From: Myxococcota bacterium
GTDB taxonomy: Bacteria; Myxococcota_A; Polyangia; DRWM01
Length of the DNA: 60,244 nt
Direction of reading: 5' to 3'
NCBI GenBank assembly: GCA_041309365.1
Contig: JBFYZU010000055.1
Span: 1 to 60,244, forward strand
This document shows positions 16,548 to 24,436 of this stretch, piece by piece. Positions within the stretch are counted from its first letter, which is position 1, and every line of letters begins with the position of its first letter. Under the pieces are notes generated by a model. The model was not told where the DNA came from and did no database searches. It worked only from the letters and a program-made list of their open reading frames with translations. The position numbers and the translations under genes are program-made.

Positions 16548-17804
16548 ATGAACGGATCGAAGATGCTGACCCTCACGACCTGCCTTCTCGCCATGAGCGT
16601 GGCCTGGGTGTGCCAGGCAGGGGATCCCCAGTACGAGGCAGCCCTCGACGAGGGCCATGCCGCCCTGGAGGCTGGCAAGTGGACCGAGGCGACGGCAGCG
16701 TTCAAGAACGCGGCCAAGCTCAACAAGGCGAGCCCGGAAGAGGCCCTTTTCGGCCAGGCCATGGTGCCCGTGAGCAAGGGCGATTTCCAGACGGCAAAGG
16801 GCCAGTGCAAGAAGTTCGTGGCCAAGTACAAGAAGAGCCCCTGGTCGCACACCTGCATGGGATATGCCTTCCTCGTGTGGAAGAAGTGGGGCCAGGCACA
16901 GGATTCGTTCGACAAGGCGCTGGAGCTCGATCCCGGATTCGCCCTGGCCATGGCTGGGCAGGGCCACGCGCTGGTCATCGCTGTCAAGCCGGACGAGGCC
17001 GTGAGCATGTACCAGAAGGCCCTGGCCGAGGATCCCGAGAATCTCGAGGCCCTTCTGGGCCTGGCCGAGGTGTACCTTTCCAAGGCAAAGAGCGAGGAGT
17101 CGGTGGATCTTCTGCGCCGTGCGGTCGAGGCCCATCCTGGCTCGGCCCGGGCGCAGCTGGCGCTGGGCAAGGCGCTGGGCAAGGGCGAGGAGGCTGCCTC
17201 GCACCTGACCAGGGCTTGCGAGATCCGGCCGGACTGGGCCGAGGCCCTGCTGGTGCTGGGCGAGGTGCAGTATGCCTCGGGCAATCACGCCGAGGCCCTG
17301 CTGGCACTGACGAAGGCCTGGGAGCTCGAGCCCAGCCACGTGCAGGCGGGCAAGCTCATCGGGATGTGCCAGTACGAGCTCGGCATGTACGAGAAGGCCA
17401 TCGAGACCATCGAGGCCGTGCTCGAGAAGGTCCCGAACCTGGCGGACGCGGCCCTCACCCTTGCGAGGAGCCTGGACGCGCTCAACCGTTACGAGGAGGC
17501 CATCGAGGCGTACAAGCAGGCCATCAACCTGGACTCCAAGGGAACGACTCCCCTGTTCCTGCTCGCCGAGCTCTACTACAGGATGGGCAAGAGCACGAGC
17601 GCCCTGTCCACCCTCGAGAAGGCCGTCACCCTCGCCCCGAAGCTCTCCATGGCCCACAAGCTCATGGGTGACATCTACTTCGAGAACAACCAGTTCAAGC
17701 TCTCCAAGGACGCCTACCAGGCCGCAATGGCCGGAGACAAGAAGGGCATCGACGAGAGCCTCGTCAAGGGTCGCCTCAAGCAGCTCAAGGAGATGGGCAA
17801 GTAG
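16548..17804 (+). CDS. exported TPR-repeat protein
   Basis: Signal peptide MNGSKMLTLTTCLLAMSVAWVCQA, then about 10 TPR-like 34-aa repeats (A..Y.KAL..DP pattern). Confidence 0.85.
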   Translation: MNGSKMLTLTTCLLAMSVAWVCQAGDPQYEAALDEGHAALEAGKWTEATAAFKNAAKLNKASPEEALFGQAMVPVSKGDFQTAKGQCKKFVAKYKKSPWSHTCMGYAFLVWKKWGQAQDSFDKALELDPGFALAMAGQGHALVIAVKPDEAVSMYQKALAEDPENLEALLGLAEVYLSKAKSEESVDLLRRAVEAHPGSARAQLALGKALGKGEEAASHLTRACEIRPDWAEALLVLGEVQYASGNHAEALLALTKAWELEPSHVQAGKLIGMCQYELGMYEKAIETIEAVLEKVPNLADAALTLARSLDALNRYEEAIEAYKQAINLDSKGTTPLFLLAELYYRMGKSTSALSTLEKAVTLAPKLSMAHKLMGDIYFENNQFKLSKDAYQAAMAGDKKGIDESLVKGRLKQLKEMGK

Positions 17805-17898
17805 CCCTCTCGCCCCGTCCATCTTCGAAGGAAACTTCCGGCTCCCTCGCGGCGATACCTGGGCCATGGCCCCCAGGGCCAAGGAAAGCGAGGAAGCC

Positions 17899-18360
17899 AT
17901 GATCACGTCAATCAAGCACACATCCCAGGAAGCCATCACCGTGGAGCCCACCGTCGTCAGGCAGACCCCGCCCGACGCCAAGGCCAAGTTCGGAGAGGCG
18001 CTCAAGCAGTCGGCCATGGTCCTGCTCGGAGCGGCCACGGGCGTGGCCTCGGTCCTGCCTGCGGGTGGGATCCTGAGCGCCGCCATACGCACCGGAGCCG
18101 GTCTGGCCACATCCCCTTCGCTCCCGGCCTCGAGCCTTCTCCCGGCGTCCCCGTCCGCATCGCAAGGTTCGCTCGCTGCGACAGGCGGCTCGGAGATGGA
18201 TCAGATGTGGCAGCTGCAGCAGCAGGGCGTGGAGTCGAGCCTGGAGGTGCTCAAGATCCAGGAAGCCATCAGCCAGGAGAATCGCGTGTTCTCCACCCTG
18301 TCCAACGTTCTCAAGGCGAGGCACGAGACTGCGAGGACAGCGATCAACAACATACGGTAG
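17899..18360 (+). CDS. small hypothetical protein with Gly/Ala hydrophobic segment and helical C-terminus
   Basis: ATG 17899 follows GAGGAAG, and ATG 17866 is also possible. High GC3. The C-terminus is ...LSNVLKARHETARTAINNIR. Confidence 0.55.
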   Translation: MITSIKHTSQEAITVEPTVVRQTPPDAKAKFGEALKQSAMVLLGAATGVASVLPAGGILSAAIRTGAGLATSPSLPASSLLPASPSASQGSLAATGGSEMDQMWQLQQQGVESSLEVLKIQEAISQENRVFSTLSNVLKARHETARTAINNIR

Positions 18361-18433
18361 AGACCCGCCCTTGCCGCCGGCACATGGCATCCGGTAAGCT
18401 GGCGTTTCGAGGGATTGGATCGGGCATCGTACC

Positions 18434-22116: not shown

Positions 22117-22197
22117 GGTTGATCGGAGACACGAGCTCGAATACCGTCTTCTCCGGGGTCACGAGCGGGGACAGGGCCCCAGCGCAGGGAGTATCGA

Positions 22198-22866
22198 ATG
22201 CTGAGACGTTCTTCTTGGGTGCTCGCCACGGCCCTCGTGATGCTGCTTGCGCGGATTCCTGGTGTGCACGCGCAGGTCAGCGGCTGGGCCGGCTCCTCCT
22301 CTCCGGCCGTCGGATCGGGCATGGGCCGGGGTCAGACCCGCGTGCTCGAGCTGTTCGGGCAGGTGGGACTGCAGGAGGGCGTCGTGGCGGGCGACACGGG
22401 TGCCAGCGATCAGAGGTCGCCGCTGGCGCTCAAACCGCTCATCGGCTTGAATTTCCATGAGATTGCTCACACCCGGATCATGGTGGGTGTCACCCTGGCC
22501 TTCCCTTTCAGCCTCGAGATGGGCTTCGGGCACGATATCTCGCAGGTGGCGGTGGCGCCCGGCGTCCTGGTGTCCCGCAGGGAATGCGCCAGCTGGGGCT
22601 GGTACGCGGGCGCCGAGCTGCCCGTCGTGATCACTCCGGAGAGAATCGTGGGTGCTCAGACCGAGGCGCTCTTCGGCGTGTCGCTGCGAGGGGGAGCATC
22701 CTGGTACTTCACGGCAGGCTTCGGTGTGTTCGCCGAGATGAACATGGACCTTTACTTCGGTGACAGTGCCGCGTTCGTTTTCGGCGGCACCGCCGGCATC
22801 GTGGTGAGCTACGAGATGTTCCGCTACGGGCTCTCCACGGGGGTTCCCGCGGGAGGTGCGTCATGA
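22198..22866 (+). CDS. small predicted outer-membrane beta-barrel protein
   Basis: Signal peptide ending VHAQ. Alternating hydrophobic beta-strand pattern with Gly/aromatic-rich turns. No family recognised. Confidence 0.55.
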   Translation: MLRRSSWVLATALVMLLARIPGVHAQVSGWAGSSSPAVGSGMGRGQTRVLELFGQVGLQEGVVAGDTGASDQRSPLALKPLIGLNFHEIAHTRIMVGVTLAFPFSLEMGFGHDISQVAVAPGVLVSRRECASWGWYAGAELPVVITPERIVGAQTEALFGVSLRGGASWYFTAGFGVFAEMNMDLYFGDSAAFVFGGTAGIVVSYEMFRYGLSTGVPAGGAS

Positions 22867-23282
22867 CGGTGCCGGCAAGGACCCGGCTGCGGTTCGCGCT
22901 CACCCTGGCTCTGGGTGCGGCCATGTTCGCGGTGCTCGCCGCGCCGCTTCCCGGGGAGGTCACGGGATGCGGCGGGGACGCTTCGGGCAAGATCAACGCT
23001 TCCGGGTACTGCTTCGAGCGATGCGCCACCGAGGCGCAGTGGCACAGGACCTGCGGCGACATTCCCGACTCGGATCAGGCCCAGGAGGAGCTGGAGCAGT
23101 ACTGTGCCCAGGTCCGGTTCTGCGATGCGCCGCAGATCTGCATGGGCTGGGTCGACTACCACATCTCCAACCAGGAAGCCTCCACGTGCATGGACGCCAT
23201 CCTGGCGCTGGAGTGCGGCGTGAACCTCAAAGACGACCCGCCGGACGCTTGCAGGGAGGATCAGCTGTGCGACCCCAGGTGA
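22863..23282 (+). CDS. small Cys-rich putative lipoprotein
   Basis: ATGA overlap with the upstream stop. Possible lipobox VTGC and 11 Cys in 139 aa. Confidence 0.55.
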   Translation: MTVPARTRLRFALTLALGAAMFAVLAAPLPGEVTGCGGDASGKINASGYCFERCATEAQWHRTCGDIPDSDQAQEELEQYCAQVRFCDAPQICMGWVDYHISNQEASTCMDAILALECGVNLKDDPPDACREDQLCDPR

Positions 23283-24436
23283 ACCGCATCACGATGGCCC
23301 TGGCCGTGGCTCCGCTCCTGGCGCTCCTCGTGGGCTGCGCCGTGTTCGGGCCCAAGCGCGAGTACGCCATCTTCCGCGAGATCACTCAGACCACGAGCGT
23401 GGCCCGTCTGGTCGAGCTTTACGACATGTACACGATCGAGTTTCCGGATGGGGCCCACGCCGAGGAGCTCGCCAGGATGAGGCCCGACATCGAGCGGGAG
23501 ATCTTCATGGCGGCAGGAGAGGACCAGTACAAGCTGGCCACCTACGTGGAGCTCTTCCCGGACGGGATCTACACCCAGCTGGCCATCCAGAAGATCGACC
23601 AGATCCAGTACATGGAGCAGGTCCTCGCCGAGCAGCAGGCTGCGCAGCTTCTCGCCCAGCAGGCCGCGGCCGAAGCCGCCGCGAAGCTCCTCGAGCAGAA
23701 GATCTCCCTCTACGCGAGCGCGCTCGAGGACTGGATCGACCTCGCCCTCGTCTCCCCCTACGGCAAGCAGGTCTCGGATCTCATGGCGCTGTCTCCGGAA
23801 TTTCTCGAGATCTGGAGCTCGGAGCCGCTGGCCCAGTGCGACCAGACGAGCTGCCTCAAGCACATGGTCCTCGAGACCTGGTACCAGATCCCGGGCTCCT
23901 CGCGGGTGGATCGCAAGAACGAGCTGATCGTGAAGATGCTGTTCGCCGGCGGTGGCCTCCTCGGTTTTTCCGTGACGTTCCCGGACAGGGGACTGGTGCC
24001 TCTGATGGAGATGAGGGATCAGGCGCCCTACGACGTGGACGCCGACACCCTCGAGATGGCCTCCATCATGGCCTACGAGATCATCGGCTCCCTGATGCCC
24101 GAAGGCTCCGAGTCCGGGATGGAGGGCGCACTGTGGGCCTGGTCCGTTCCCGGCGCCAACGTGGCAGTCGTGCGCGAGGGTCAGCTCCCCGGCCCCGTGA
24201 TGGACAGCCTGGTGGTGCAGCTCGTGCCACCGCCGGAGCCGGAGCCGGAGCCGGAGCCTCTCCCCAAGGGAGTCAAGCCCAAGAAAAAGCCGGTGGAGCC
24301 GCCGCCGCCGTTGCCGCCCATGGCGACGGTCGAGCAGCTCCTCTACCACCCAGCATTGCCGCTCCTCGAGGCGGCACCCGTGGCGCCGCTGCCGCCACCG
24401 GCCCCGCCGGTGCCGGCCCCGCCGCCCTTGCCTTGA
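23279..24436 (+). CDS. lipoprotein with Gln/Ala coiled-coil and Pro-rich C-terminal tail
   Basis: GTGA overlap (or ATG 23294). Lipobox LLVGC, then [23 protein letters not shown]. The tail is [15 protein letters not shown]...[13 protein letters not shown]. Confidence 0.6.

Follow-up and report, generated by a model that had tools for sequence, protein, structure and literature searches.

The window analysed in this work is a stretch of 60,244 nucleotides (nt) from a Myxococcota bacterium (contig JBFYZU010000055.1 of assembly GCA_041309365.1), with a guanine plus cytosine (GC) content of 66%. At positions 16548-24436 it carries ten plus-strand open reading frames (ORFs), g1 to g10, which an earlier note made from the sequence letters had described as a ten-gene envelope cluster built around an ExbB-ExbD-TonB motor, and all ten were recovered. 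They are listed below; core genes are those conserved as a unit between lineages, and accessories those confined to one lineage (lineage 1 being that of the window).

16548..17804, plus strand: g1, exported TPR protein of 418 amino acids (aa), lineage-specific accessory
17899..18360, plus strand: g2, 153 aa, core protein of a large uncharacterised family
18434..18784, plus strand: g3, 116 aa, core protein
18825..20192, plus strand: g4, 455 aa, core PEGA protein
20217..20909, plus strand: g5, ExbB/TolQ-family proton channel
20906..21325, plus strand: g6, 139 aa, ExbD-type subunit
21322..22116, plus strand: g7, 264 aa, TonB-family protein
22198..22866, plus strand: g8, 222 aa, predicted small outer-membrane beta-barrel, lineage-1-specific accessory
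22863..23282, plus strand: g9, 139 aa, probable lipoprotein, lineage-1-specific accessory
23279..24436, plus strand: g10, 385 aa, lipoprotein (LVGC lipobox), lineage-1-specific accessory

The intergenic gaps from g1 to g10 are, in order, 94, 73, 40, 24, -4, -4, 81, -4 and -4 nt, and the four 4-nt overlaps that had been claimed (ATGA at 20906 and 22863, GTGA at 21322 and 23279) were read directly in the sequence. GC content at the third codon position was 0.74-0.90 in eight ORFs, namely g1, g3, g4, g5, g7, g8, g9 and a long ORF containing g10, with g2 and g6 each merged into a longer, upstream-extended ORF and so outside this listing. These values are typical of real genes in 66% GC sequence.

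Profile hidden Markov model searches of the cluster proteins against Pfam and NCBIfam bore out the domain types assigned by eye, with TPR repeats in g1, PEGA in g4, MotA_ExbB in g5, ExbD in g6 and TonB_C in g7, and g2, g3, g8, g9 and g10 matched no family in either database. The sole NCBIfam family to score above its cutoff was a generic TonB C-terminal domain model, in g7. The absence of a TonB-dependent receptor and of TolB from the window, also stated in the earlier note, held when nearly all other ORFs longer than 200 aa in the 60 kb were searched against Pfam, with no match to Plug, TonB_dep_Rec or TolB/PD40. Candidate promoter and terminator sites between 13000 and 27800 were no more numerous than in shuffled sequence, Rfam had no matches in the whole window, and the PADLOC defence models, which include anti-phage MotAB-like systems such as Zorya, had no match in g2-g10.

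A predicted Ton-type motor

The product of g5 matched MotA_ExbB in Pfam (E 1.1e-31), and its top matches among PDB sequences were ExbB (76-74 bits) and TolQ (72 bits), which are about equal. Its true start is probably the GTG at 20268, giving a protein of 213 aa, rather than 20217, because homologues measure 212-217 aa. The start of g6 overlaps the stop of g5 by 4 nt. Its product matched ExbD in Pfam (E 9e-31) and, among PDB sequences, ExbD of Serratia (58 bits) and of Escherichia coli (49 bits) ahead of TolR (44 bits). The essential transmembrane aspartate is kept in the g6 motif INVTPLVDV and aligns with the aspartate of INVTPFIDV in the E. coli ExbD chain, which we take to be Asp25 in E. 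coli numbering. For g7 the Pfam match was TonB_C (E 6.4e-15), and every match among PDB sequences was a TonB chain, with no TolA among them. An N-terminal SxxxH anchor (SMALH), a Pro/Lys/Glu-rich spacer PEELPPVPEKPAEPEPE and a YP motif (IPYPPEAR) in the C-terminal domain were read directly, and the C-terminal domain is strongly conserved across lineages.

The cluster shares with known Ton systems the single ExbB, ExbD and TonB genes joined by 4-nt overlaps, the ExbD aspartate, the SxxxH anchor, the Pro-rich spacer and the YP motif. Unlike them, it falls below all of the NCBIfam equivalog cutoffs, scoring 94 against 206 bits for exbB, 66-69 against 153-216 for ExbD and 47 against 315 for TonB, whereas g7 passes the tonB_Cterm domain model (41.7 against a cutoff of 27.1). 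On these alignments and motifs, g5-g7 are best described as a divergent but apparently complete Ton-type trio, belonging neither to Tol-Pal nor to Agl/Glt.

A six-gene core kept across two lineages

The PEGA protein g4 has few homologues, a word-indexed search returning 18. The loci compared (numbered with the prefix L) were assigned to lineage 1, made up of the window, L001 and L130 with L003 as a further close relative, and to lineage 2, made up of L004-6, L011, L044, L054 and L126. Loci with a PEGA protein 54-70% identical to that of the window (L001, L003 and L130) keep all ten genes together with unrelated flanking genes for dihydroorotate dehydrogenase (DHODH), Hsp70, DnaJ, PrkA and peptide chain release factor 2 (RF2). 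Because these unrelated flanks are equally syntenic at that depth, the close relatives are uninformative on linkage.

In lineage 2 the genes g2-g3-PEGA-ExbB-ExbD-TonB are kept in that order with other genes on both sides. Identity to the window is 38-41% for PEGA, 44-50% for g2, 23-26% for g3, 46-53% for ExbB, 54-58% for ExbD and 41-47% for TonB, and the contigs range from 39 to 62% GC (39-70% for the six-gene block overall). The short contig L053, which represents a third branch, carries g2, g3, PEGA, ExbB and ExbD, with the motor directly after PEGA. Upstream of the lineage-2 block, the TPR protein is replaced by a Lys-rich exported protein of 314-322 aa, or in L054 by a PilZ protein. Downstream of TonB, g8-g10 are replaced by a lipoprotein of ~870 aa with a MopE-type Cys-rich region, an acidic linker and about five PPC-like repeats (L126 14622-17237, L054 16674-19286, L044 4952-6778), copies of which on contigs of 39% and 57% GC share 62-69% identity; in L054 a 567-aa lipoprotein with a P_proprotein domain lies between it and TonB. 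In every case TonB is followed by an envelope protein that is exported or lipidated, although which protein this is varies. In this respect too the arrangement differs from known Ton systems, as the motor has a fixed place after a conserved trio and is itself followed by outer-membrane lipoproteins or a barrel, which vary.

In a neighbour-joining tree of the PEGA proteins the motor-linked loci formed one clade, and no member was seen to lack the motor, with the truncated loci L003 and L010 left unscored. The earlier expectation that the neighbours would be co-conserved with the motor was borne out in lineage 2 for g2, g3 and PEGA, but not for g1, g8, g9 and g10. The ten genes of the proposed cluster are real, but the conserved unit, judged by gene order, is the six genes g2-g3-PEGA-ExbB-ExbD-TonB, accompanied by lineage-specific envelope accessories.

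The accessory genes of the window were characterised individually. g1 has many TPR matches in Pfam and a signal peptide that was read directly; its NCBIfam scores are all far under cutoff. The description of g8 as a small beta-barrel protein was upheld by its AlphaFold model, which is all-beta (pTM 0.62) with ten strand segments assigned by DSSP, and whose best Foldseek matches were the eight-stranded barrels Ail, OmpX, OprF-N and OmpA-N (E ~1e-5). Homologues of g8 are all at least 52% identical, and so lie within lineage 1, and g8 is absent after TonB in L044, L054 and L126. g9 does contain the 11 cysteines ascribed to it, together with a VTGC lipobox-like site, and was found in the window, L001 and L130 only. 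In g10, confined to lineage 1, the LVGC lipobox, a Q/A-rich helical stretch and a Pro-rich tail were read directly, in agreement with its description as a coiled-coil and Pro-rich lipoprotein; against PDB sequences it had nothing below E 0.49. No homology between g8-g10 and the ~870-aa lipoprotein of lineage 2 was detected at E below 0.09. By this distribution, g1, g8, g9 and g10 are lineage-specific accessories outside the conserved core.

A separate observation concerns L054 (Ga0078972_1002412), which at 39% GC carries the same six-gene block as contigs of 55-70% GC. It also encodes two giant proteins, of 934 and 1,603 aa, that match Met-zincin faintly, and immediately upstream of g2 it has a PilZ-domain protein of 627 aa, which hints at cyclic di-GMP control in that organism.

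The g2-g3-PEGA trio beyond the motor

Relatives of g2 are numerous. A scan of metagenome contigs with a g2 alignment gave at least 261 confirmed relatives, and a word-indexed protein search gave 317 matches, the named ones mostly labelled as Myxococcota, Polyangiales or Deltaproteobacteria metagenome-assembled genomes. An exhaustive profile search, counted in clusters at 50% identity, reached 2,580 at an E threshold of 0.001 and 1,136 at one of 1e-10. The profile matches listed are proteins of ~100-250 aa in which the match nearly always reaches the last residue. The family (P0029-P0291) carries no annotation. In most loci g3 follows g2, directly so in 69-71 ORFs of the fetched loci by jackhmmer, and in many PEGA follows g3; other g2 loci have no PEGA.

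The distribution of these loci suggests that the g2-g3-PEGA trio is older and wider than its association with the motor. In several Polyangiales-type trio loci the neighbours are housekeeping genes and a divergent MerR regulator, and a Pfam search of the genes downstream of the motor-less loci L012 and L025 was uninformative.

Features of the core proteins g2, g3 and PEGA

The g2 protein carries PRxTP...F..AL as its conserved N-terminal motif, and a disordered linker precedes the long C-terminal helix, which ends in SNVLKARHETARTAINNIR. Its AlphaFold model contains helices at 27-50, 56-69 and 99-152, the linker comprising ~30 residues and the C-terminal helix being confident. At the extreme C-terminus the family has a near-invariant signature, SNV(L/M)KARH(D/E)T...I.N(I/V)R. 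The final ~45 residues of g2 can be aligned with type III secretion needle proteins such that the two C-termini coincide, the common pattern being Q..[IL]S......SN..K...D....I.N.R.

Several comparisons were made with this resemblance in mind. Alignment of g2 by hhalign with seven needle sequences, whose identity as needle proteins was confirmed by PDB matches, gave P 2.6e-4 and a probability of 42%, and with a 258-sequence g2 profile gave P 3.8e-4 and 36%; the reversed-sequence control gave nothing. Among 44 g2 relatives searched against Pfam, 11 had weak T3SS_needle_F matches (E up to 1, best 0.0028) and 11 weak HrpA_pilin matches, and one relative, P0091, has a precomputed match to PF09392. 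Foldseek of the g2 model against the PDB gave no matches, PDB profile searches with g2 alignments gave matches at chance level only, and no type III export genes were found in the window or related loci. Needle and pilus subunits (SctF proteins such as MxiH, PrgI and YscF, and HrpA) have their conserved end at the same C-terminal position as g2, but at 153 aa g2 is twice as long as the ~80-aa helix-turn-helix hairpin of SctF and has a different N-terminal half. The similarity is weak, and may serve as a lead rather than a classification.

A reading of g2 as a bitopic membrane protein, suggested by a hydrophobic stretch at 38-62 of the window copy, is not supported, as relatives carry charged residues there; the AlphaFold model has two short helices of modest confidence at this position.

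In g3, whose place is always after g2, the N-terminal half is disordered and the C-terminal half helical, with motifs xIxxxGGP, LRAGxI and DP. By eye it resembles FlgM (MxIDxxGG, LRAGxI), a candidate that was abandoned because Pfam searches of 45 members gave no FlgM, only scattered noise and no consistent family.

The PEGA domain of g4 lies at residues 191-256 (Pfam E 2.2e-16), among its periplasmic domains. A signal peptide, a Gly-rich linker and a WWFW-hydrophobic anchor were read directly, followed by a C-terminal tail ...GDLILEF that is invariant. Across the PEGA family the C-terminus (20040-20192 in g4) consists of KWWFW, ~20 hydrophobic residues, a Gly-rich stretch and a terminal (V/I)(V/I)(F/L)EF, and this architecture is common to motor-linked and motor-less members. 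It resembles a sorting or docking signal, none of which could be named, and its terminal aromatic residue recalls the end of outer-membrane barrels. Candidate TonB boxes were inspected in g2 (EAITVEP), at the mature N-terminus of PEGA (TTVYPLVV), at PEGA 367-376 (GEVTIIGPPV), in g8 relatives (ETVVYEF) and in the ~870-aa lipoprotein. They were set aside, since those that could be checked recur in motor-less relatives or fall inside predicted barrel strands. A literature search for papers connecting PEGA proteins to ExbB or TonB found none.

Neighbouring genes in the window

Upstream of g1 lie genes for an 815-aa Hsp70 (13537-15984, plus strand), whose nucleotide- and substrate-binding parts are split by a long Pro/Ser-rich insert, and for a 172-aa DnaJ-domain protein (15986-16504, plus strand), which begins 1 nt after Hsp70 and ends 43 nt upstream of g1. 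The order Hsp70-DnaJ-TPR-g2-g3-PEGA is complete in L001, L003, L047 and L130 and partial, from DnaJ onward, in the contig-truncated L046 and L051; all six belong to lineage 1 and hence are not independent. In L128 and L129, which are of Polyangiales type, a divergent MerR regulator occupies the Hsp70/DnaJ position. The module may be linked to chaperones or the heat-shock response.

Downstream, 46 nt after g10, is a PrkA-family AAA/serine kinase of 687 aa (24483-26546, plus strand), which follows g10 in L001 too. Neither YeaH nor SpoVR, with which it is usually partnered, adjoins it; RF2 comes next, on the opposite strand. Toward the end of the window, a 241-aa OmpA-family protein with a Pal-like C-terminal domain and a DUF7107 Cys-rich region (59316-60041, plus strand) follows an 860-aa S49 peptidase, and is the only candidate for a peptidoglycan-binding outer-membrane protein in the window.

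Three large exported-looking proteins are encoded upstream of the cluster on the minus strand: one of 607 aa with a lamin-tail domain (4601-6424), one of 783 aa with faint Ig-like matches only (7415-9766) and one of 608 aa with an S55 (SpoIVB-type) peptidase domain (9763-11589). The last two are syntenic in L001 and L003, and a lipid A acyltransferase (6402-7346) lies among the three. A 1,167-aa sigma-54 activator with an N-terminal TPR region (52951-56454, minus strand) adjoins a GAF histidine kinase (50187-52316, minus strand). A Ser/Thr kinase is encoded at 45623-47332, and in other loci, too, Ser/Thr kinases (cluster c2) are the genes most often found near g2 outside the module itself.

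A proposed Ton paralogue dedicated to an envelope module

The reading we favour, tentatively and at a little short of an even chance, is that the older three-gene envelope module g2-g3-PEGA acquired a Ton paralogue in a single recruitment, in an uncultured Myxococcota-like lineage, that the two have stayed together since, and that the paralogue works with outer-membrane partners that vary by lineage. Gene content, motor hallmarks, the co-conservation of six genes and the variability of the outer partners were observed directly, whereas each physical contact in the model that follows, as well as its output, is proposed. The motor would comprise an ExbB pentamer, an ExbD dimer and the TonB-family protein, with proton flow through ExbB-ExbD exerting force on TonB. 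The TonB C-terminal domain would span the periplasm and pair by its strands with an outer-membrane partner encoded just downstream, which would be the small barrel and two lipoproteins here and the ~870-aa lipoprotein elsewhere. The PEGA protein, exported and probably held in the inner membrane by its C-terminal anchor, would form, together with g2, a small protein with a needle-like C-terminal helix, and the half-disordered, helical g3, a conserved platform or the object acted upon. Instead of importing nutrients through a 22-strand receptor, such a machine would bring about a mechanical change at the cell surface, for example by exposing, releasing or remodelling a surface lipoprotein. The earlier proposal of a motor dedicated to a non-receptor envelope module gains strength from the co-conserved trio, but falls short of proof.

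A number of observations weigh against this reading. The linkage rests on two deep lineages and one short contig, and inheritance by descent could explain part of the linkage between motor and trio. Most trio loci have no motor within 10 kb (L012, L025, L057, L059, L086-89, L127, L128 and L129), and because of this the g2-g3-PEGA module is judged to have no need of one. The gap between PEGA and ExbB is 24-207 nt, which provides no translational coupling, unlike the junctions inside the motor, and no TonB-box-like motif specific to the motor-linked clade was found among the candidates. As g2 and g3 have no signal peptide, and as the g2 family does not consistently keep the hydrophobic stretch seen in the window copy, both may be cytoplasmic and beyond the reach of the TonB C-terminal domain. 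Finally, a TonB of such canonical appearance could serve receptors encoded elsewhere.

The strongest alternative, which we consider rather unlikely, is that g5-g7 are an ordinary Ton set for receptors elsewhere in the genome, placed beside the trio through shared ancestry or envelope regulation, with the barrel and lipoproteins as passengers. Every Ton hallmark of the motor is canonical, the two lineages have different genes after TonB and the trio occurs without a motor in most genomes, all as such a set would have it. The Vibrio TonB2 cluster, for comparison, contains extra conserved accessory genes, including TtpC and the TPR protein TtpD, and still serves classical receptors; the window resembles it in being a Ton cluster with accessory genes that include a TPR protein, but the accessory proteins are unrelated. 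However, an ordinary set does not readily account for a six-gene block that persists, with proteins 38-58% identical and GC contents from 39 to 70%, where both flanks have been replaced, nor for the monophyly of the motor-linked loci with no loss observed. The receptor that typifies Ton systems was found neither among the ORFs scanned in the 60-kb window nor in related loci, Plug and TonB_dep_Rec being absent from the Pfam-annotated genes of L001 and L126 and from the scanned downstream genes of L044 and L054. Receptors are, for their part, commonly unlinked to tonB, and the missing adjacent receptor is weak evidence because Myxococcus xanthus has a TonB-containing cluster without one: it carries seven ExbBD clusters, four with TonB, of which one in four is without a receptor (PMC6434023). 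The same seven clusters make it less likely that a Myxococcota-like genome would have one housekeeping set alone, and a specialised ExbBD set is plausible because myxobacteria carry many ExbBD paralogues (PMC6434023).

A bolder version of the favoured reading, to which we give less credence than to the ordinary Ton set, is that the six-gene unit is an unrecognised apparatus driven by the proton-motive force, in which a TonB motor, instead of opening a 22-strand receptor, would act on a scaffold of inner-membrane-anchored PEGA and a polymerising, needle-like g2 and thereby move, expose or release lineage-specific surface lipoproteins.

A divergent Tol-Pal-like system for envelope integrity is improbable. 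In it TolQ- and TolR-like subunits and a TolA-like anchor would tether the outer membrane during division, with the small barrel and lipoproteins replacing TolB and Pal and the TPR protein acting as CpoB (YbgF). The proton channel and stator do belong to the same superfamily, both systems have an envelope operon with a TPR protein and outer-membrane lipoproteins, here together with a barrel in one operon-like array, and in NCBIfam g5 and g6 score highest against tolQ (113 bits) and tolR (92 bits), respectively. These scores are nevertheless far under the cutoffs of 221 and 127, as is the sub-threshold match of g1 to the YbgF model (55 against 90 bits), and g6 is closer to ExbD than to TolR and g7 TonB-like, not TolA-like, among PDB sequences. 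No TolB/PD40 or OmpA/Pal domain was detected in g8-g10 by Pfam or NCBIfam, the only OmpA-family gene of the window is 35 kb from the cluster, and the supposed Pal and TolB substitutes are missing in the sister lineage.

The earlier note had also drawn an analogy with AglRQS and the Glt/Nfs complexes, and this holds for the functional logic only, as no feature of Glt membership was found by NCBIfam. Luciano et al. in 2011 are said to have described Agl-Glt/Nfs as a TolQR/ExbBD-family motor serving a trans-envelope complex that is not a receptor and contains TPR, TonB_C, barrel and lipoprotein components. The Agl motor consists of the TolQ-like AglR and two TolR-like subunits, AglQ and AglS, and has no canonical TonB. 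An Agl/Glt- or Nfs-like surface-transport machine (for gliding, spore coat or polysaccharide, as AglRQS in Myxococcus) is very improbable here, for although it shares this general parts logic and the homologues bear Myxococcota-type labels, the motor combines a canonical TonB with one ExbB and one ExbD, the GltE score of g1 is 46 bits where the cutoff is 225, g2-g10 match no gliding model, the conserved partners g2, g3 and PEGA are not Glt/Nfs proteins, and conservation of the barrel, lipoprotein and TPR components does not extend beyond one narrow lineage.

Implications

If g5-g7 were a housekeeping Ton set, the value of the locus would shrink to the description of a conserved g2-g3-PEGA module. 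If the bolder apparatus were real, the motor-less g2-g3-PEGA family, which comprises thousands of clusters mostly labelled Myxococcota or Polyangiales, would represent a new and widespread envelope structure. The recruitment of a Ton paralogue to the trio makes a testable prediction, that the TonB C-terminal domain binds one of very few neighbouring proteins. To our knowledge, Ton and Tol motors have few known outputs: they gate receptors, drive Tol-Pal constriction and, as Agl paralogues, power gliding. A canonical Ton trio stably associated with a non-receptor module would add another output to the Ton family, and the cluster would give a handle on an unannotated family of more than 2,500 protein clusters.

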